Source: Sedimentisphaerales bacterium
Lineage (GTDB): Bacteria > Planctomycetota > Phycisphaerae > Sedimentisphaerales > SM23-30
DNA length: 64,000 nt
Reading direction: 5' to 3'
Assembly (NCBI GenBank): GCA_963663965.2
Contig: CAXXFK010000025.1
Span: 64,001-128,000 of the forward strand
The translations under genes and the position numbers were made by a program. Within the stretch, counting starts at the first letter, position 1. Every line of letters starts with the position of its first letter. Of the stretch, positions 31,553-41,047 are shown in pieces. The notes under the pieces are model-generated. The model was not told the DNA's origin. It searched no databases and saw only the letters and a program-made list of their open reading frames with translations.

Positions 31553-32233
31553 TTGCGCGGAGCGAACCAGATATTATGATGGCTTGACCTGAGGGGCGGC
31601 TGGGGGGGTATGCTTTTGAATTATGGTTCGGTAAAATGCCGTAATTATCTTTATAGTAGATTGTTATGCGGCAAAAAATTTTTTTTGGGTTCGTTTAGTT
31701 TGGGGGTGTCAATGGGTAGTTGGAGTTATGAGCCGGTGGATTGATGTTGGGTTTACTGGTGGCTATGGGGTTGGGCGGCCAGGCGCCTATGGTTGATATG
31801 GCCGGGTATATGGCCGGTGGGGGTGTTAAAATAGGCAGGATTGGCTTCGTTTGGCATAGGGGTGAGGGGGGCAGACGAGGCGGCACTCATTGGGCGGCCC
31901 AGTGGATGTACCGAGTTATTGTATTATAGCAATAAGTTTGCTAGATGTCAAAATAATTATTTAATATTGTGTTTAGAAAATTTTTGGATTGTGTGTGGTC
32001 GGGTGTGGGCGGGCCAGGCGCGGTGGGATTGGAGTTGACGGGAGCGGGCGGGGTGATATGATGGAGGGAGGTAAATAAGATTGATTTTAGAACTGGATTG
32101 AGTGGCTGATATGGAAAGAGTTCAAGACAGGGATATTCTGATGGTTAGGGGAGGGGGAAGAAGCGGACTGTTCGGGTGTTGTCTTATGGAAGCTTGTACG
32201 ATGAAGCGCTGAGTTTTGTCGAATGATATTATG

Positions 32234-32342
32234 AAGAAAATATTTTAGACAGGATCATCCCGATAGCCATCGGGACTTTCAGCTCATTGACAGGATGGAT
32301 CAGAAAGACGTGACAGAAAAAATCATTGGGTGCGCTTATCGG
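32234..32342 (+). repeat. Junction repeat copy 1: GACAGGAT leader plus N-terminal remnant of a GxxExxY gene
   Basis: aagaaaatattttagacaggat-catcccgatagccatcgggactttcagctcat-tgacaggatggatcag. ATG 32295 reads MDQKDVTEKIIGCAYR, the typical start of GxxExxY proteins, after which similarity stops. Confidence 0.75.
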
Positions 32343-32423
32343 ATATCGCCCGGCTTAATAGTGTGGGGAATTGAATGGATAATAATAGAATAATGTACAT
32401 GTGAATATTTATGCGGTGTTTCT

Positions 32424-32906
32424 ATGAAAAAATATAATTATATAAAACAAGCCATCGTGTTAGTGATTGTTGTGGCGGGTATTTTAGTTTTATTGAATTT
32501 TATTGGCGTAACAGAAAGGCCAGGTAGTATTCAGCCGTCGTTGGTAGATAATGAACTTATCTTCAAAATTAAATATGGTACAACAAATGGATTGCTCAAG
32601 CTCATAATTAGAGATGCCGAAACGAACAGTATTGTTTGGGATATCAATTTAAATTATTTCTATGGGGATAAATTGGCATATGGCGAAATACCTAAAGAAT
32701 TTGAAACTGACAATGGCGTAATCAATAATGCCAAGCAAAATATTCCTGCGGATGGCAAGCCTGTTGATTTGGTTGAGGGAAAAGTATATGAAATATATTC
32801 TGACTGGCAATATGATGCCTTTATTTCAGCGTTCGTTGGTAGTAGAGAGGAATACTTTAAGATAGAAAAAAATAATATTGTATTTGTAGAACGGACCAAT
32901 AATTGA
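32424..32906 (+). CDS. Hypothetical membrane-anchored protein (cassette 1, putative immunity protein)
   Basis: AT-rich ORF with one N-terminal TM helix. Shares a W-D-[IL]-N, YG..P, A.Q pattern with 33297 and 34774. Confidence 0.7.
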   Translation: MKKYNYIKQAIVLVIVVAGILVLLNFIGVTERPGSIQPSLVDNELIFKIKYGTTNGLLKLIIRDAETNSIVWDINLNYFYGDKLAYGEIPKEFETDNGVINNAKQNIPADGKPVDLVEGKVYEIYSDWQYDAFISAFVGSREEYFKIEKNNIVFVERTNN

Positions 32907-32912
32907 AATTAA

Positions 32913-33100
32913 TTATGCCCTAGACCACCGCATCGAGATGCGGGTGAGGTGGTGGATACTGTGACGCGCTATTACTTCAATGACCGCTGGCAGGTGGTGA
33001 TGGAGATTGTCGAGATTTTAAAGAAAAATATTTTAGACAGGATCATCCCGATAGCCATCGGGACTTTTAGCTCATTGACAGGATGGATCAGAAAAAAGTG
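32913..33100 (+). repeat. Junction repeat copy 2: RHS-core remnant plus GACAGGAT leader
   Basis: Translates YALDHRIEMRV / (frameshift) EVVDTVTRYYFNDRWQVVMEIVE, like the RHS core YDALGRRIEK...TRYYY..WQV.EE. Then attttaaagaaaaatattttagacaggat...tgacaggatggatcagaaa. Confidence 0.8.
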
Positions 33101-33296
33101 ATGGATAATAATGCGTTATACAACGACAAGCTGTGCTTGACCGGTGCCATTCGTGACAGGTTGTCGAGGTTACCCGGCCGCGCTTTGGGTTGGGGAATGA
33201 AGTCTTTGACACACTGCCATTATTCTTTGGGTATGCCCCAATCCAAGTTTGGGTTATCAGACCTGTATTTCATCAGGTTTAGGAACGAGTTCTAAT

Positions 33297-33755
33297 ATGC
33301 TAATTAAATGGTTTAAAATTTTGATTGTTACAATATTGTGTTGCGTTATATTTGTTTTAATTTGGCTAATAGGTATTATGCCATATCATGGGGTCAATAT
33401 AGACATATTATCTAATCCCAATTTAGTGATATCCATGAAGCCATATGGCACGAGATTCAGAGGCATTAATTCCGTCATATTTAAGAGTATGAATGATATT
33501 GAATTATGGACAGTAGATTATCATCTAGGTGGAGCTGATAGCGCTTTGGAATATGGGATAACTCCTGAAGGTTGTGATCAGAGAGCTGAGGCGAAACAAT
33601 TAGAAGATGAGATGTTGGTAATAGTTCAGATATATGGCTATTGGCCTATTCCTTGTATTGATGCAGAAGTATTTTGTATTAAAAGAAATACCGATGGACA
33701 TTATGAAATCGATAAGAGAATTACAAAAAAATACAAAGGTCTAAATCTGCCCTAG
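33297..33755 (+). CDS. Hypothetical membrane-anchored protein (cassette 2, putative immunity protein)
   Basis: ATG 33297 directly after TAA 33293-33295. N-terminal TM helix. Clear paralog of 34774-35235. Confidence 0.7.
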   Translation: MLIKWFKILIVTILCCVIFVLIWLIGIMPYHGVNIDILSNPNLVISMKPYGTRFRGINSVIFKSMNDIELWTVDYHLGGADSALEYGITPEGCDQRAEAKQLEDEMLVIVQIYGYWPIPCIDAEVFCIKRNTDGHYEIDKRITKKYKGLNLP

Positions 33756-33838
33756 ATCTAACAAGTTGAAATAACGCCATTTTTATTAAAGCTAATAAGA
33801 GTTGTAAGTCTATGGCAATGGGATTGATGAATAAATTT

Positions 33839-33911
33839 AGAAAAATAATTTAGACAGGATGACAGGATGGATCAGAAAATAGTGACTGAAAATTTATAGG
33901 GTACGCTTATC
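33839..33911 (+). repeat. Junction repeat copy 3: GACAGGAT leader plus degenerate GxxExxY start
   Basis: agaaaaataatttagacaggatgacaggatggatcagaaaatagtgactgaaaatttatagggtacgcttatc aligns with copy 1 with a one-base deletion. Confidence 0.75.
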
Positions 33912-33928
33912 TGTCAGGATATTGTGTT

Positions 33929-34483
33929 GTGATAATGAAAAGAAAATATGTAATCATTGTACTAATAATTTTGACGATATGGATCGTCTGGTATGAGATT
34001 CAATTTAATACTTTTTTGAAAAGATATGATATATTTTACGATGGTGGAAAGCTCAGATTTGTTGGCAGTGGACACTCAAAATTTGACATAACAATTTATG
34101 GTGTCGATATTACCGGTTATAAAAATTCTGATATCAGATTGAATTTCAATAACCTTGATATTCCCATTAATGATATTAGCCGGGAACAAATCAAAGAGTT
34201 ATTAGATGCTCAGCCGGACATTGGCTATGAGATAAATACGGATGGGACTATTGCCATTGGAACAAAATATTTAAATGGATACCTGATCCATGATTTTACG
34301 ATTTATTTGACCGATGAAGAATTTACTGTCAGCGTCAGTCTGGAACATAATAAAACTAATACTAATCAGTGTATTTTGATCATGCCTGATAAGCCCACGA
34401 TTGGTATTCCGATTAAAAGGAGTGAATTGATTAAAAAAATGGGAAAACCGGAAGAACAGTCAATCACGAGAGAATTTCCATAA
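33929..34483 (+). CDS. Hypothetical membrane-anchored protein (cassette 3)
   Basis: AT-rich 184-aa ORF with one N-terminal TM helix and C-terminal ELIKKMGKPE. No family recognised. Confidence 0.7.
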   Translation: MIMKRKYVIIVLIILTIWIVWYEIQFNTFLKRYDIFYDGGKLRFVGSGHSKFDITIYGVDITGYKNSDIRLNFNNLDIPINDISREQIKELLDAQPDIGYEINTDGTIAIGTKYLNGYLIHDFTIYLTDEEFTVSVSLEHNKTNTNQCILIMPDKPTIGIPIKRSELIKKMGKPEEQSITREFP

Positions 34484-34505
34484 TTTATAATAATAGTGCC
34501 TTAAG

Positions 34506-34608
34506 ATGACGCAGTATTATTACTATGGCCGCTGGCAGATGGTGATGGAGATCGTTGAGATTTTAAAGAAAATATTTTAGACAGGATGACAGGATTGACA
34601 GGATGGAT
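34506..34608 (+). repeat. Junction repeat copy 4: RHS-core remnant plus GACAGGAT x3
   Basis: Translates MTQYYYYGRWQMVMEIVE, then attttaaagaaaatattttagacaggatgacaggattgacaggatggat. Confidence 0.8.
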
Positions 34609-34773
34609 ATACAATATGAGACATGCGGCAAGATTGAGGTGTTATATGGGGATGGATTGGCTGGAACAGCCGTTAGTTACCACGGAATACACGGACCACG
34701 CGGAAGAAAACAGAGGAGAAAGAAGCGTTGTGTTTTGGCGATTGGATGTTAATAAACTAATAATCAGGTAGAG

Positions 34774-35235
34774 GTGGCTATGAAAGGCAAGACGATATGG
34801 ATAATAGTTGGTATATTTATAATATCAACCATTTTGTATTATTGTTTTAAATCTTCATATTATGGTGTGGATATGACAGTGATCGATGCCTCAAAACCTG
34901 TTTTTGAGTTCAGGCAATATGGAATATCGAAACAAGGATTATGTTCAATGCATTTTGAAACAATTGACAGAACAATGCTCTGGGATTTAAACATTATCAA
35001 TGCTCCTTCGAGTATACAAATGACCTATGGCATTGTGCCAGATGATGCTGAACAGTTACAAGAACCACTTGATTTGCCGCCGGAAGAGATATGGGTTTTT
35101 GTTGAAGGGATTTTTGATGTTCCGATTCCGGTAATTGCAACCGAGTCATATCGCATCAAGAAAATCGAAGGACAATATGTTATTACTAAACGAACTTCGG
35201 GTATATTCAAGCCGATCAACCTGGCAGGATTATGA
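34774..35235 (+). CDS. Hypothetical membrane-anchored protein (cassette 4, putative immunity protein)
   Basis: N-terminal TM helix. YYGVD...YG...LWDLN...YGIVP..AEQ...PIP...KRT...NL aligns with 33297-33755. Confidence 0.7.
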   Translation: MAMKGKTIWIIVGIFIISTILYYCFKSSYYGVDMTVIDASKPVFEFRQYGISKQGLCSMHFETIDRTMLWDLNIINAPSSIQMTYGIVPDDAEQLQEPLDLPPEEIWVFVEGIFDVPIPVIATESYRIKKIEGQYVITKRTSGIFKPINLAGL

Positions 35236-35429
35236 GCCGGAGGTGAATTCGACGGAGTTGCCGGAACAGCCGGTTATTACCACCGAGGTCGTCGAGTTCA
35301 CAGAGGGTCCCAATGGTGTTTTGACTGTGAATGAGTTATTTGCTTTAGCGGCCGATCCGAACGATTCATTGGGTGCGCTGCTGGATCCCAATAGTATGGG
35401 ACTGATTGGGTAGTGTCAAGAATCTTTCG

Positions 35430-37365
35430 GTAGCGCCAGGTAACTGGCAAGGAGTAGCGGATGCAAGAGCCGTACAATGAAGGTTTAGCAAACCACATTG
35501 GCCCCGAGTCATGTGGGCATACCGGTAACGGTATGCTTGAAGCGTTGACAGGGGAAGATGCGGGCTGGGTATTGAGCCGCGTAAGTTTGTACATTATAGA
35601 ACGGAGTGCCGACGCTGTCGAAAATGTCGGAAGGCAACACCGGATGTCTTATTATCGCGAGAGACATTCCGGACTCCGCGCGGTCGAAGACCCCAGGCAC
35701 GCATGGACACTTCTTGCACAGGAACTGGGAGATCCCTTGTTTGGCCTCAGGACACATTATCCTGTGGTCCGCACAGAAAATCCAATTGGAGTACTGCTGT
35801 GATGAACGAACAGGGGAAGTCGGACAGGCCCATAGTACCTAAGAAGTTCTCGAACAAAGAGGCTGGTTGCCATGCCTTGGCGGAGAGGATAGAGGGAAGG
35901 GGCCTGACCAAGGGCAATTCGTCTCTACTGCACAAGTGCCGGACACCGGGCCGGGAAAGCTTGCCAAACGCATTAGAACGAATACGACAGGCAGCCACCC
36001 GGGATAAACAGCTAAAGTTTACTTCCCTGTGGCATCATGTCTATCATGTCGACCACCTGAGAGAAGAATTCTATCGCATTAAGCGGCAGGCTTCCCCGGG
36101 TGTGGACGACCAGACATGGCAAGAGTATGAGGCCGGGTTAGAGAACAATCTCAATAGCCTGGCAGAACGACTGAGAAAGGGGGCATATCGGGCAAAACCG
36201 GTAAGGCGGGTATTCATCCCCAAACCGGATGGACGCCAGCGTCCCATTGGTATTACTACCATTGAGGATAAAATCGTCCAGCGTAGCACGACTACGGTAT
36301 TGAACGCTATTTATGAGGCTGACTTCAAAGGCTTCTCCTATGGCTTTCGTCCCGGTCGCAGTGCTCACAACGCCTTAGATGCTCTCTATGTCGGCATACT
36401 CAAGCGTAAGATAAACTGGGTACTCGACGCTGACATCAGCGGCTTCTTTGATGCCATCGATCACGATTGGCTGATTAGATTCGTCGAGCACCGAATCGGA
36501 GACCCGCGAGTAGTACGGCATATCAAGAAATGGTTGAATGCTGGAGTCGTGGAAGAAGACAAACTTCTGCAGATCAAGGAAGGCACCCCGCAAGGTGGGA
36601 GCATATCGCCATTGCTGGCGAATATCTACCTTCATTATGTATTTGATCTGTGGGCTGACCAATGGCGAAAGCGTAACGCCAAAGGGCATATGATTATCGT
36701 TCGATATGCTGACGATATCGTTGTCGGATTCCAATATCAATCGGATGCCAATAGATTTCATACGGACCTGCAGAATCGATTTGGCAAGTTCAAGTTGAAG
36801 CTTCATCCGGCCAAAACCCGGCTCATTCAGTTCGGCCGCTATGCGACAGAACGAAGGACTACTCAAGGTAAAGGCAAGCCTGAGACATTCGACTTTCTTG
36901 GCTTTACGCACATCTGTTCCAAGTCAAGTAAAGGTCGGTTTATGTTGCTCCGGTTGCCGATGAGAAAGCGGGTGCAGGCCAAGCTAAAGGAAATCAAGGA
37001 ACAGCTCAAATACCGGCGCTATACCTCGATTCCGGAGATGGGCCAGTGGCTTCACTCTGTTATCAGCGGCTGGTACCGATACTACGCCGTTCCTAATACA
37101 TCTCGCTATCTTGGCACCTTTCGCCGTAGGGTCGCCTGGCTTTGGTTCAGAGCGTTAAGAAGACGCAGTCAACGAAGCCGCATGACCTGGAGGCGAATGT
37201 ACCAACTGATAGCAAGATGGCTTCCGCAGCCTAAAATTCTGCATCCGTACCCCCAGGCACGCTTACAAGCTGCTCGTTATGACCCGAGGTAGGAGCCGTA
37301 TGCGGTAGTTCCGCTCGTACGGATCTGTGCGGGGGGCTGGGAGTAATCCCAGTCCCTACCGCGAC
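35430..37365 (+). mobile_element. Group II intron (probably bacterial class E-like, IIB)
   Basis: Domain V gagccgtatgcggtagttccgctcgtacggatc at about 37293, domain VI ending ...ccctaccgcgAC at 37365. Removing 35430-37365 restores the IS TIR. Candidate EBS1 cgaaaa at 35619-35624. Confidence 0.9.
35802..37292 (+). CDS. ltrA: Group II intron reverse transcriptase/maturase without HNH domain
   Basis: PGVD, IPKPDGRQRPIGI, SYGFRPGRS, DADISGFFD, GTPQGGSISPLLANIYL, RYADD, FDFLGF and maturase X domain. Start MNEQGKSD at 35802 preferred over 35703. Confidence 0.95.
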   Translation: MNEQGKSDRPIVPKKFSNKEAGCHALAERIEGRGLTKGNSSLLHKCRTPGRESLPNALERIRQAATRDKQLKFTSLWHHVYHVDHLREEFYRIKRQASPGVDDQTWQEYEAGLENNLNSLAERLRKGAYRAKPVRRVFIPKPDGRQRPIGITTIEDKIVQRSTTTVLNAIYEADFKGFSYGFRPGRSAHNALDALYVGILKRKINWVLDADISGFFDAIDHDWLIRFVEHRIGDPRVVRHIKKWLNAGVVEEDKLLQIKEGTPQGGSISPLLANIYLHYVFDLWADQWRKRNAKGHMIIVRYADDIVVGFQYQSDANRFHTDLQNRFGKFKLKLHPAKTRLIQFGRYATERRTTQGKGKPETFDFLGFTHICSKSSKGRFMLLRLPMRKRVQAKLKEIKEQLKYRRYTSIPEMGQWLHSVISGWYRYYAVPNTSRYLGTFRRRVAWLWFRALRRRSQRSRMTWRRMYQLIARWLPQPKILHPYPQARLQAARYDPR

Positions 37366-37469
37366 CACATTTTTTATTAGTCTTTCATCTGGTAGAGTCT
37401 TTCAATGGAGGAGGGAGGGACAACTCCCTGCCCTGCCTCCCCGAGGGGAGGCAAAAATTTATCGGACGA

Positions 37470-38711
37470 TCATGCCATGACCACCTCCTCTTTTTCAGCT
37501 TTTTTCTCCTTCTCCAACTCATACAAATGATCCATATTCAAATAACGCCTCGTACCCCATTGGGTGCCGGCAATATGTCTCAGGCGGGCCGTGGCCAGCA
37601 TCAGGGCCGAGTGACCATCCGGGAAATTGCCCACCACGCGCGTACGACGACGAATCTCACGCATGATCCGCTCCAGTGGATTATTGGTTCGCAACTGCCG
37701 CCAGTGCTTGTCGGGATATTGATAGTAAGTGAGTGTTTCGAGATAGCTTTCCTGGACCAATTCAGCGGCCTTGCCCAGTTTCATCTCCCGCAATTTGACA
37801 ATCACTTGCTCGGCCTTCTGGATCGCCGCCTGGCGGTCTTCCTGGGCATGGATGGCCTTGAGCATGGCCGCTACCTCTCGCACCTTCTTGCGCGGCACAT
37901 GACTGAACACGTTGCGATACCAGTGGACCGTGCAGCGCTGCCAGTCGGCCTCCGGAAAAACCTCGGCCAGCGCGTCCACCAGACCCAGGCATTTGTCGGA
38001 AACAAACAGGCGAACGCCCTGCAGGCCGCGGCGCTTTAAATCGCGTAAGAAACCGCCCCAACCGGCTTTATCCTCTTTGGCGCCCTCGCAGGAACCCAGC
38101 ACTTCGCGATAGCCCTCCTGATCGACGGCAATGGCCACCAGAATCGAAACATTCTTGACTTCGCCGCCCCAGCAACGTTTCAAAACGATGCCGTCCAGAT
38201 AGACATAGGGATACGACCCTTCCAGTTTGCGGTTGCGCCATTGGTCGATCTGTTGATAGACTTTCTGATTCAGATTGCTGATGGTGCCCGCACTGACACG
38301 GGCGCCCCACAGGCTTTCGGCGATGTCTTCGATACGCCGGACCGAAACGCCGGCCAGATACATCTCGATCAGGGCCTCTTCTACCGAAGACTCCCGGCGT
38401 TTATAGCGCTCGATGATGGCGGTTTCAAAGGTCGTTTTTCGCAGCTTGGGCATCTTCAAATTCACTTCGCCGGTCGTCGTATGAAACTTACGCGGATAAT
38501 AGCCCGCCCGGGTATCGGTGCGGGCCTGGGTATGTTCATAACGCTGGGCGTTGCAGAGCTGGTCCGCCTCGGCGTCCAGCAGGGCATTGAGCGTGTCTTC
38601 CACACTCTGGCGCACCATCTGGCCCAACTGATCCTTCATCTGGGATTGGTCGATTTTTAAAATTTGGTTCAAGTTCCTAACGTCACTGGTCGATTCTTCT
38701 GTTTGACTCAT
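37470..38711 (-). CDS. IS256-family (Mutator-like) DDE transposase
   Basis: IEMYLAGVSVRR, YVYLDG, GYREVLG, LFVSDK, WQRCTVHWYRN, RTNNPLERIMREIRRRTRVVGNFP. RBS AAAGGA precedes ATG at 38711. Confidence 0.95.
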   Translation of the reverse strand: MSQTEESTSDVRNLNQILKIDQSQMKDQLGQMVRQSVEDTLNALLDAEADQLCNAQRYEHTQARTDTRAGYYPRKFHTTTGEVNLKMPKLRKTTFETAIIERYKRRESSVEEALIEMYLAGVSVRRIEDIAESLWGARVSAGTISNLNQKVYQQIDQWRNRKLEGSYPYVYLDGIVLKRCWGGEVKNVSILVAIAVDQEGYREVLGSCEGAKEDKAGWGGFLRDLKRRGLQGVRLFVSDKCLGLVDALAEVFPEADWQRCTVHWYRNVFSHVPRKKVREVAAMLKAIHAQEDRQAAIQKAEQVIVKLREMKLGKAAELVQESYLETLTYYQYPDKHWRQLRTNNPLERIMREIRRRTRVVGNFPDGHSALMLATARLRHIAGTQWGTRRYLNMDHLYELEKEKKAEKEEVVMA

Positions 38712-38902
38712 AGTCAGTCCTTTCATTTGGTGGTAGGTTTCGGTTTCAAAAACTTCATCGACCAGATGAAGGACTGTTTTTACGGTGTCCTATAATATGT
38801 GCGAAAAATATTTTACCTTATCACTGATTGCTGCTGATACAGGGATATCAGTTATAAAAAATGTAGTGCAATACAGTAAAAAAACAATCTAGGAAAATTA
38901 AT

Positions 38903-39301
38903 ATGAAGATTGGGAATCAAAAAGTCTTTAGTGTTATTTTGTTAGTTGGTTTAGCTACAATAGTTTATATGTTAATTAAATCAAATGGAAACAATGAAAA
39001 CGATGAATTAGTAGAGACGATGTCGATATATGTAATTGAAAAGAATCCTAACAAAGTGTCTGAGATACCAATTAAATTTCATAAAGAAGATAAAATTACA
39101 AATACCGTGTGGATTGAATGTAACATAAAAGATAAAGGCAATGCTTATTATAAGGCTACAGAAGGATCATCATTTTCATTAGATGAAAATCCTGATTTAA
39201 CCAATAAACCGATTGATATAAATCTGTGTTTATTAAAAAATGAAGACGATAAAATTATTGTAGGTACAACTTTTGGATTATCATTGGAAGTAATTAAATA
39301 A
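38903..39301 (+). CDS. Hypothetical membrane-anchored protein (cassette 5)
   Basis: Very AT-rich 132-aa ORF with one N-terminal TM helix and AGGA RBS; followed by junction repeat copy 5. Confidence 0.7.
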   Translation: MKIGNQKVFSVILLVGLATIVYMLIKSNGNNENDELVETMSIYVIEKNPNKVSEIPIKFHKEDKITNTVWIECNIKDKGNAYYKATEGSSFSLDENPDLTNKPIDINLCLLKNEDDKIIVGTTFGLSLEVIK

Positions 39302-39317
39302 ATTATGTGCCAGATAG

Positions 39318-39467
39318 TTACAACAATGACCGCTGGCAGATGGTGATGGAGATTTTCGAGTATTTAAAGAAAAATATTTTAGACAGGATCATCCCGATCC
39401 CGATGGCTCGGGATTTCGCTTTGCTCAATATCCGGGACTTTCAGCTTATTGACAGGATGGATCAGGA
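39318..39467 (+). repeat. Junction repeat copy 5: RHS-core remnant plus GACAGGAT leader with doubly nested palindromic insert
   Basis: Translates YNNDRWQMVMEIFE, then tatttaaagaaaaatattttagacaggat-catcccgatcccgatggctcgggatttcgctttgctcaatatccgggactttcagcttat-tgacaggatggatcag. Confidence 0.8.
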
Positions 39468-40025
39468 ATTGCTGGGAATTTATGTAACGCAAAGGCGCAG
39501 GGTTGGGATGAGTTGATTGCCACTGATACGAGGATACAGGGATTTTTGCCGAAGATTCTGGTAATGCGTGTGACAGCTTCGGCGGCGGGGTGGCGTTCTT
39601 TCGGCTCCTCCTGAGGCGGATCTTCGACTTTCGGGCCTTTTGCGGGGGTCAATTTTTTCCGAATAAAAACACGCTGAAGGGCCTGTTGCCCAAAAGTAAA
39701 TCAAGCATCTCTGCTTGACATTTAGTCATTCCAAACGTGGTTTTTAAGCTGATAATCGGGTTAATGTCATAATCAAAACAACACTCTTAAGTTAAATTGG
39801 CTTTAAGCAACATGCCCTGAAGCGTGAACTCCGAACGGGCCAGAGACTGACAGCCCACCGGGCTTCAGTTGTGCAGATGTGAGTATTATTAATATTGTGA
39901 GAGGAGGGTGTGATGTATTATAATAAACAGGATGGGCGGAATTCAGGCTGTCTAGCCATTTAGAGAGACAGTACTTGTTTTTTAGGAGTAATTGTGATAA
40001 TTATAAATAGAATAGCATACTTTAT

Positions 40026-40325
40026 ATGCATAGCAATATGAACAATAAAAAACTGATATTATTAATATTGATTATAGATGCCATCCTTATTGGTATTACC
40101 GGGATTTTAGTGTCAAATAAAGAATATAGTTCGATGATGATGCAGTCAGTTTTCGCATTTCTGGCCGGTATTGTGCAAATTATTCTTTGCATTTCCGGCC
40201 TCATAGTCAACAGGCGCTTTTATAATAAGGGGGCGATATTATTTTATATCCTGCATATAATTATCACGCTGGTTTTTGTAAATATTTCAGATAGCGGATA
40301 TTTTTACCATAAATATGGACACTAA
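40026..40325 (+). CDS. Small three-TM membrane protein (cassette 6)
   Basis: AT-rich 99-aa ORF with three hydrophobic helices. Confidence 0.6.
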   Translation: MHSNMNNKKLILLILIIDAILIGITGILVSNKEYSSMMMQSVFAFLAGIVQIILCISGLIVNRRFYNKGAILFYILHIIITLVFVNISDSGYFYHKYGH

Positions 40326-40417
40326 GAAAGAGGATAGGATTGTGCCTAATGATGATAAAGAATGGAGTGATAGGAATAAATACGAGGAACAGAAAGTTAT
40401 AGTGCCAAGGAGTTATT

Positions 40418-40684
40418 ATGAAAGATAATGACAATCGCAACGTGAATGATTATCCGGAAAAGAAGGGCACCGTGGATATTTATCATGAGTTGGCAGAAGA
40501 TCAGGTTGATGTTGTTTATATTGAGGGGGATCGGGCCGGGCTGGAAAGTCTGGCGGAATTGTTATTATGGTTGACGCGTCATACCGGTGTGGAGCCGATG
40601 GATGATCATATTCATCTGCATCGAAATGTGCAATTGGGGAAACGGTCTTGTGAAGTTGCGGTTTATTGCCGGGAGGATGTGTAA
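40418..40684 (+). CDS. Imm32-like immunity protein (cassette 7)
   Basis: AGGAG RBS. VYIEGDRAGLESLAELLLWL...DDHIHL matches the recalled Imm32 pattern (I.G...GL..LA..LL...H.HL). Confidence 0.6.
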   Translation: MKDNDNRNVNDYPEKKGTVDIYHELAEDQVDVVYIEGDRAGLESLAELLLWLTRHTGVEPMDDHIHLHRNVQLGKRSCEVAVYCREDV

Positions 40685-41047
40685 TGTAGAACGGAATAAT
40701 TGAACGGGAAGCGTTTGTATTGATTGGTGGATATGTGGGAAAAAAAGAAACAGCCGGAACAACTACGAAAGGTACGAAACCCTCGTAAGAAAACGGGTTG
40801 GAAGAGGAATTTAATAAACCGCGTGGGCGGTGGCTACCCTGCTGGCTCAGAAGTGTTAATGGATCGGGGTTTATTGGCCTGGGGATGGGAAATGGGGGTA
40901 TCATAAAACTTAAAAAAGATGCCAGATATTGTATGGTTTCTGTTGGGGATATGGTGAAAATAGGGTGGTTTCCTGTTAGAATGGTAGTATTACCGGGCAT
41001 AGATTCGTTACTTTAAATCGATTTTCAGGCGCTTATGGGAGCAGGTC

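Follow-up and report, generated by a model that had tools for sequence, protein, structure and literature searches.

A candidate orphan poly-immunity array spaced by a copied RHS/GxxExxY scar in a Sedimentisphaerales genome

The DNA analyzed here (the window) is a stretch of 64,000 nucleotides from a Sedimentisphaerales bacterium of the Planctomycetota (GenBank assembly GCA_963663965.2, contig CAXXFK010000025.1, forward strand), and it corresponds to positions 64001-128000 of contig C25 in the assembly under study, G000 (7.24 Mb, 94.6% complete, 5.4% contamination). Contigs of G000 are designated C15, C20, C25, C40 and so on; G000, G013, G250 and G511 denote genomes, and coordinates without a contig refer to the window. 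Between two carbohydrate-enzyme genes lies an AT-rich island that contains seven co-oriented open reading frames (ORFs), o1 to o7, and five copies of a junction in which a remnant of an RHS core is fused to the arm (GACAGGAT) of a GxxExxY cassette. The island is probably an orphan poly-immunity array: RHS toxin-immunity modules would have lost their toxin halves, and the immunity genes left over would have been chained behind a portable promoter by a scar that recombination copied.

An earlier note, made from the sequence alone, had described seven short co-oriented ORFs and five junction copies at this site. Both were recovered, the junctions as AAAAT(A/-)TTTTAGACAGGAT...GACAGGATGGAT at 32237-32300, 33025-33088, 33842-33872, 34569-34608 and 39371-39462, at most 4 nt from the positions noted. 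Unless stated otherwise, the features described here are on the plus strand. The leader at the head of the array (31992..32133) showed 81% identity over 144 bp to C20:322179-322037, the head of an RHS toxin-immunity array on C20, and was also found at C30:94223. It contains a predicted promoter-like element, TTGACG-16-TG-TATGAT (32035-32062), which matches the consensus and has the same hexamers in C20. As promoter-like sites were also frequent in shuffled sequence (22, against 35 found), this element counts by its conservation only. A perfect TTGACA-17-TATAAT with TG was observed on the minus strand (31951-31923), divergent from the leader and with no convincing downstream gene.

The first junction, J1 (32150..32339), consists of an eroded, weak RHS-core remnant, a left arm with a nested hairpin, and a GxxExxY 5' stub, MDQKDVTEKIIGCAY (32295-32339). 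It is followed by o1 (32424..32906), a putative immunity protein of 160 amino acids (aa) with an N-terminal anchor. J2 (32915..33090) combines the RHS remnant VVDTVTRYYFNDRWQVVME, 88-92% identical to the C15 cores, with an arm carrying a nested hairpin in a short-form fusion, and precedes o2 (33297..33755; 152 aa), a distant member of the o1 family with 29% identity to o4. In J3 (33801..33911), the RHS remnant YGNGIDE enters a long-form fusion like that of C20, followed by a shortened arm and a frameshifted GxxExxY stub; the gene behind it, o3 (33935..34483; 182 aa, N-terminal anchor), belongs to a second putative immunity family unrelated to that of o1. J4 (34507..34713) carries an RHS remnant, an arm and then a second dispersed-repeat or RHS-like piece (WLEQPL...TTEYTDH), and leads to o4 (34780..35235; 151 aa), another distant o1-family member. 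A sixth remnant, R5, which the earlier note did not include, stands before o5 and lacks the repeat. Its 5' part (35236..35408; DPNDSLG.LLDPN) has no GACAGGAT arm and is 90% identical over 41 bp to the C15/C20 cores, and its 3' part (38823..38868; LIAADTG) continues the remnant, with 87% identity over 46 bp across the site of an insertion sequence (IS) to C15:188337-188292. The following gene, o5 (38903..39301; 132 aa, 27% GC, N-terminal anchor), is a putative immunity gene by position only.

J6 (39318..39462) is made up of an RHS remnant and an arm with an 82-bp nested hairpin element (39377-39458). Behind it lie o6 (40038..40325; 95 aa), a membrane protein and uncertain member of the array whose start is 576 bp past J6, and o7 (40418..40684; 88 aa), a predicted soluble protein that matched Imm32 (PF15566) with an E-value of 2.2e-5 and 24.8 bits, below the cut-off of 27; a junction stands directly 5' of neither. 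The intergenic gaps from o1 to o7 were 390, 179 and 296 bp, 3.7 kb (with the IS), 736 bp and 92 bp. The AT-rich composition and N-terminal transmembrane helix ascribed to most of the ORFs were found in six of the seven (27-36% GC, hydrophobic helix) and not in o7 (46% GC, no helix). A further short repeat, at 39601-39644, is dispersed over the genome in more than 15 nearly identical copies.

Neither a full RHS gene nor an integrase is present in the window, as had been noted: the RHS core TIGR03696 and tyrosine recombinase gave no match there, and the RHS core hidden Markov model gave none on C25. No toxin ORF was found between o1 and o7, none of the cargo genes had a recognisable toxin remnant upstream, and the array is interrupted solely by core remnants and by one IS on the opposite strand.

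The remnants of J2, J4 and J6 matched an RHS core on C15 (p 0.001 each, 1000 shuffles), which bears out the earlier assignment of the YYxNDRWQ fragment to RHS, and the parent sought for it was represented by parent-type cores at C15:189375 and C15:184930. Two orphan RHS genes on C15, both above the cut-off for TIGR03696, contain YYFNDRWQ as YYFNDRWQVVMETDEEGATRREFVYGNGIDEPL. Three junction copies had been credited with such a fragment; these three stand, and J3 (p 0.001) and J1 (p 0.003) also carry remnants, with p 0.8 for two control stretches. The remnants were 85-97% identical to the C15/C20 cores and end 5' of the core motif, with no toxin tip in the window; R5 derives from a part of that core lying further along. 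Arrays of the conventional type, in which a core remnant is followed by a toxin tip and an AT-rich gene, were found at C15:189375-174191 and C20:322068-315241, and each contains one copy of the same junction (C15:182930 and C20:317479). The C20 junction leads to two toxin-less genes that resemble the gene in the immunity position on C15 (E 1e-4 and 0.004).

Two forms of the fusion were distinguished. In the long form (C20 and J3), the core runs through GIDE and then into the repeat, and in the short form (C15, J2, J4, J6 and the J4 of C40) 48 bp are missing; J1 is eroded. The repeat side of the fusion was shared by all 11 junction copies at four loci; the reuse of one chimeric junction, proposed from the window, thus extends to four places. 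A fusion point common to all of these copies points to one founding event followed by copying.

A second copy of the array, on C40, consists of the leader, o1 to o3 and four junctions and then ends, in a neighbourhood that differs from that on C25. The two copies in one assembly hold three and seven genes, respectively, in agreement with the variable cassette content that had been suspected. Between them, 5 changes were counted over 32670-34212, whereas the opening 83 codons of o1 had 22 and the closing 90 codons of o3 had 41, and these clusters place the exchange points inside genes and not at junctions. The ratios of nonsynonymous to synonymous change (dN/dS) between the copies, 0.24 for o1 and 0.28 for o3, indicate purifying selection; the cargo reading frames are intact and the spacers eroded. 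Five combinations of upstream and downstream flanks were found across the arm (long-A, long-C, short-C, short-B and non-RHS-B), which indicates that sequences were also joined at the arm. Downstream of J2, the DNA is common to non-RHS arm copies at C30:103670 and C30:110693, and this junction was therefore joined to outside DNA. The proposal of recombination at the composite repeat is upheld by this reassortment.

The C40 copy was not supported as an assembly artefact, given a depth of 7.4-8.4 in the shared part against 3.4-3.6 in the flanks and the presence of C40 alleles in run X2; it may come from a co-binned strain (5.4% contamination of the assembly). No excision was seen in the public contigs, which represent one sample, possibly the source. 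Contig joints at 32296-33111 and 34604-39377 were rejected as evidence of excision, as their short side has 22 letters that match repeat copies at C10.

A different history was weighed, in which an ordinary orphan RHS array decayed in place, its toxins being deleted singly and the junction spread by gene conversion or unequal crossing-over, with no immunity gene captured. Such decay would agree with the start of the intact orphan modules in the same 65-bp core stretch as the remnants (C15 core positions 487-552), with the mixture of intact and stripped modules on C15 and C20, and with R5 as a remnant without an arm; o1, o2 and o4, being of one family, could then be old duplicates. However, independent deletions would not yield one fusion point at four loci, and the sharing of the DNA behind J2 with non-RHS arm copies, together with the position of the array between carbohydrate genes on a contig without an RHS core, also argues against decay in place, which is considered unlikely.

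The second half of the junction was traced to a GxxExxY cassette. Locus L045 has exactly this arm before YSDITEKIIGCAY and the inverse arm after the stop codon, so that the term GxxExxY leader used earlier for this part is correct, but the part is the scar of half a cassette. The continuation into MDQK(D/I)VTE..IG.AY described for two copies was found in J1 and J3, both of which lead into MDQK(D/I)VTE; J3 is frameshifted ahead of IG.AY. A complete GxxExxY cassette is not present in the array, where the left arm and at most 15 codons remain, and no inverted arm word was found in the array outside the intron described below. Hairpins of 82 bp (in J6) and 33 bp (32256-32288 and 33044-33076) are nested at one and the same point of the arm, and the 82-bp form matched 13 other places in the genome. 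By its score, the hairpin of J2 resembles a terminator. Among 31 GxxExxY loci, 27 had usable flanks, and in 16 of these 27 the gene lay between inverted arms of its own that scored better than 95% of mismatched pairs. Among the GxxExxY genes of the family, the arms consist of three imperfect 9-nt words, and the words vary between genes (L041-L070, L038); the arm type of the window was found in one of 30 pattern hits, L045, and the others use different 9-nt words. G000 has five GxxExxY genes, none of which carries the window arm type within 150 bp upstream.

The arm is dispersed in G000, with 57 clusters (including hairpin-split copies), 48 of them outside the two array copies and forming 37 loci; about 1.2 tandem ACAGGAT occurrences were expected genome-wide (order-3 Markov model, tandem pattern only). 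It was also matched in 13 of 40 relatives, where no RHS gene was found within about 1.5 kb of the arm at the 10 loci inspected. A repeat specific to the array was rejected in view of these outside loci and relatives. Of the 37 loci in G000, 8 are at most 3 kb from an RHS core (32 cores; such neighbourhoods make up 1.9% of the genome), and the remaining 29 are farther off.

The enrichment near RHS cores, the reassortment of flanks, the five GxxExxY genes of G000 and the arm-framed genes elsewhere are what would be expected if cassettes were captured in an integron-like manner, the arm then being a site reserved for recombination or nicking on which an enzyme encoded elsewhere, such as a GxxExxY nuclease or a REP-associated transposase, would act in trans. 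No integron integrase was found in G000, where no TIGR02249 match exceeded the cut-off (best 86.8 bits, against 265), and the nearest tyrosine recombinase matches (PF00589) were 61 kb from the C25 array and, as a fragment, 25 kb from the C40 copy. The core motif of attC sites is GTTRRRY/RYYYAAC, and no such core was found in J2, the only junction scanned; Rfam gave no match. Moreover, the arms of the array are left arms only, eroded or interrupted by hairpins; R5, o6 and o7 have none; the crossovers between C25 and C40 fall inside genes; and the GxxExxY genes of G000 lack this arm type upstream. With ragged remnants, one boundary without the repeat and a repeat dispersed genome-wide, the integron-like label of the earlier note was not supported, and capture of this kind is considered improbable. 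A related proposal, that the arms of GxxExxY cassettes are portable, enzyme-assisted crossover sites that strip RHS toxins and chain immunity genes behind a portable promoter, is likewise considered a long shot; if true, it would amount to integrase-free cassette capture for interbacterial defence, with a single undescribed toxin family opposed here by two immunity families that are unrelated to each other.

Several other observations concern RHS modules and arms elsewhere in G000. The C15 core also carries an in-frame arm-like stretch (WLEQPLFTT...), and an intact orphan RHS module on this contig is headed by a right (inverted) copy of the GACAGGAT arm, also in frame (G000:C15:186759-186600). 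At G000:C20:322068-320740, an ORF of 442 aa opens at the ATG of the shared leader, crosses a dispersed arm and continues into an orphan RHS core with its toxin tip; judging from its reading frame, it could allow this orphan pair of toxin and immunity gene to be expressed in the manner of a toxin-antitoxin module. Two blocks of 4.2 kb that are 98% identical (G000:C11:17800-22000 and C30:156000-160200) each hold an RHS toxin-immunity pair of the orphan type together with a transposase gene of the REP-associated type, which indicates that whole modules move within G000.

As to the cargo, no Pfam, NCBIfam or PADLOC family scored above cut-off for any ORF. The ORFs o1, o2 and o4 form one family (23 library hits): a profile built without o2 and o4 recovered both (E 0.0025 and 1e-6, respectively), and a narrower profile did not. 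L020 (E 8e-4, 36 positions) was excluded from the count of this family, and L006, L026, L027, L073 and L077, being one locus, were counted once. In G013, an o1 homolog (44% identity) starts 60 bp behind an RHS toxin tip, and the family of this tip occurs on at least three kinds of N-terminus (RHS and secreted non-RHS), as expected of a polymorphic toxin. When 200 genomes of the order were searched with the G013 tip, one more locus was found, in G250 (40%). The gene behind the G250 tip is a homolog of o3 (27% over 192 columns, E 4e-6; hhalign 92%). With the anchors removed, it scored 62 against o3, with a shuffle maximum of 53 (p 0.001), and the other six ORFs gave p 0.03-0.97. An o1-family gene had been expected at this place, and this was wrong (profile score -1.3 bits). 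With o1-family and o3 homologs behind homologous tips, four of the five remnant-preceded genes trace to one toxin family, through one locus per family. Precedent for two unrelated immunity proteins against one toxin reportedly exists (PMC13392607).

No cognate toxin was matched in G000 (94.6% complete) by tblastn or phmmer, by genome search, or with a profile of eight tips (E<=10). Plasmids gave no toxin match, 36 relatives of G250 no further toxin locus, and scans of metagenomes nothing. In sequence searches of the PDB, no match to the toxin tip or the o1 family had an E-value under 0.1; word-index searches with A1 and o3 returned only the genome's own proteins; and the atlas clusters nearest to o1 were unnamed (0.92). 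A TipC immunity-like identity of o3 was set aside, the best atlas similarity (0.78, including a TipC immunity-like cluster) being too weak to use. The invariant His and NSNTF of the toxin tip presumably resemble the His...NC motif of permuted papain-like enzymes, and at a guess a permuted papain-like tip would fit an envelope target and membrane-anchored immunity.

It was also considered that the island simply accumulates junk, with ORFs for exported proteins that serve some other function and with RHS and repeat fragments as bystanders at a recombination hot spot. The many islands of G000 with the same repeat repertoire, the lack of a named family for the cargo and the solitary position of most o1 and o7 homologs, inserted between housekeeping genes, would be in keeping with this. 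Against it, o1 to o5 are each directly preceded by an RHS remnant or its scar, and in two other genomes a single toxin family is linked to two cargo families that are unrelated to each other; a junk-accumulating island is therefore given little chance. The homologs of o7, which is Imm32-like, were observed mostly as single AT-rich genes between housekeeping genes, in nine genomes of the order.

For the orphan poly-immunity array, the following order of events is proposed. G000 holds orphan modules of one RHS subfamily, with core remnant, toxin tip and immunity gene, on C15 and C20. The left arm and first codons of a GxxExxY cassette would have been fused once to the RHS core right after GIDE, with loss of the remaining core and the toxin, and a later 48-bp deletion would have produced the short form. 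The scar was then probably copied by ordinary homologous or homology-facilitated recombination and joined to varied downstream DNA, leaving a scar and an immunity gene without toxin; it could be copied and rejoined because its 5' part is homologous to RHS cores and its 3' part to the dozens of arms dispersed in the genome. The portable promoter common to the C20 array would drive the cluster. Judging from gene position, o1 to o4 would be membrane-anchored proteins on the periplasmic side, where they would neutralise variants of a single, uncharacterised RHS toxin family of other bacteria. The array would thus most likely protect the cell against a rival-killing toxin family that is absent from its own assembly.

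Several points weigh against this account. The earlier expectation of immunity-type cargo with homologs behind RHS genes holds for o1 and o3, with a weak Imm32 match for o7, but adjacency to a toxin was seen at one outside locus per family: one of five for o1 (the other four solitary), one of two for o3 (the other, in G511, in a non-RHS repeat pair) and one of the nine fetched loci for o7 (L032-L040; eight solitary). The o2 and o4 proteins are only 20-23% identical to o1 and gave no score against the G013 gene (p 0.19 and 0.04), o5 had no homologs in 200 genomes, and the homolog search for o6 was confined to G000. In the C40 copy, o1 has an extra A in the A-run after the first ATG (G000:C40:107105, the copy of window position 32426), which causes a frameshift; the extra A also appears in run X2, and a later GTG could give a product of 149 aa. 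No full-length gene of this RHS subfamily was found in the assembly, the longest relative being a headless ORF of 703 aa. The analysis covered one genome of the genus, and growth of the array over time was not observed; deletions, and not crossovers, could account for the change from long to short form and for some of the changes in flanks.

In G511, an o3 homolog and another AT-rich exported gene (L076 4099-5674; G511:C57) are each preceded by a 208-bp direct repeat (88%), which is unrelated to the window junction and represents a second kind of repeat-spaced pair.

The 3.4 kb of its span on which the earlier note was silent are occupied by an IS256-family element with a group II intron. The element (35409..38822, minus strand; transposase 38726-37470; NF033543, 366 bits) sits in R5 with an 8-bp target duplication (35401-35408 and 38823-38830). 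The intron (35430..37365, plus strand) has a reverse transcriptase/maturase ORF that extends to 37292 (RF02005, 182.7 bits; TIGR04416, 375.7 bits), starts with GTAGCG, lies in the left terminal region of IS256 and moves along with it, the loci considered being the window and C2, C6, C13, C21 and C28 of G000. The unit of IS and intron recurred on C6 and C28 at 99.9% identity, C13 has the IS without the intron, and a 1936-bp skip was seen in contigs. These copies indicate that the IS256 element and its intron are late passengers, which would have hit the array after it had formed.

The published accounts compared here were available in part, and the likenesses and differences refer to those parts. 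In the polyimmunity loci of Zhang et al. 2012 (PMC3482391), as here, co-oriented immunity-type genes of related and unrelated families stand in tandem with no toxin between them, and content varies between copies. The intergenic distances there are short, whereas the spacers here are RHS/repeat scars of 170-390 bp, and no recombinase is adjacent here. Extended loci of this kind are listed there only for proteobacteria, bacteroidetes, firmicutes and actinobacteria, and the present genome is of a Planctomycetota lineage; no stand-alone poly-immunity locus was found for this lineage in the literature searched, although Additional File 1 of that paper could list planctomycetes. The low-GC, co-oriented orphan immunity genes and repeated intergenic sequence of rAID-1 of Bacteroidales (10.1101/471110) also have counterparts here (o1 to o6 are within the limit of 41% GC, with five junctions). 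The 5' XerD-like recombinase that defines rAID-1 is absent, and the repeat here is RHS-/GxxExxY-derived and genome-wide. Orphan Rhs-CT/immunity modules (PMC3150448, PMC7043789) are reportedly likewise headed by a core remnant, and the C15 and C20 arrays are of this kind, but no toxin tip is left behind the remnant in any module of the window.

Parallels in process are the orphan immunity arrays of the type VI secretion system of Vibrio cholerae (PMC5361080) and the orphan immunity genes of Serratia Rhs1 (PMC10539506), in which immunity genes also outlast the toxin (in the present assembly the cognate toxin is missing), breakpoints fall in genes, and homologous or homology-facilitated recombination acts without an integrase. 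Those arrays trail an intact effector gene, whereas the array described here stands alone with its own leader, each gene behind a copied core remnant fused to a mobile-cassette arm. Poly-immunity behind Rhs has also been described in Stenotrophomonas (10.64898/2026.07.13.738213). According to the Vibrio account, the gain of unrelated immunity genes is beyond homologous recombination by itself, and no integrase is known to bring it about; for Serratia, a fossil record of the order of events is said to be missing. The present locus keeps such a record, with one scar in intact RHS arrays and in a stripped array, and the scar, with homology on both its sides, could enable ordinary recombination to bring in unrelated genes. 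The analysis of this locus also provided one uncharacterised RHS toxin family (at least eight sequences) and two unrelated candidate immunity families. Neither a stand-alone array with RHS/GxxExxY-scar spacers nor these toxin and immunity families were found described in the literature searched, outside which lay most subscription papers and all supplements. By its sequence, the locus is thus of a known kind, that of polyimmunity loci and orphan immunity arrays, and its stand-alone form spaced by an RHS/GxxExxY scar appears to be new.

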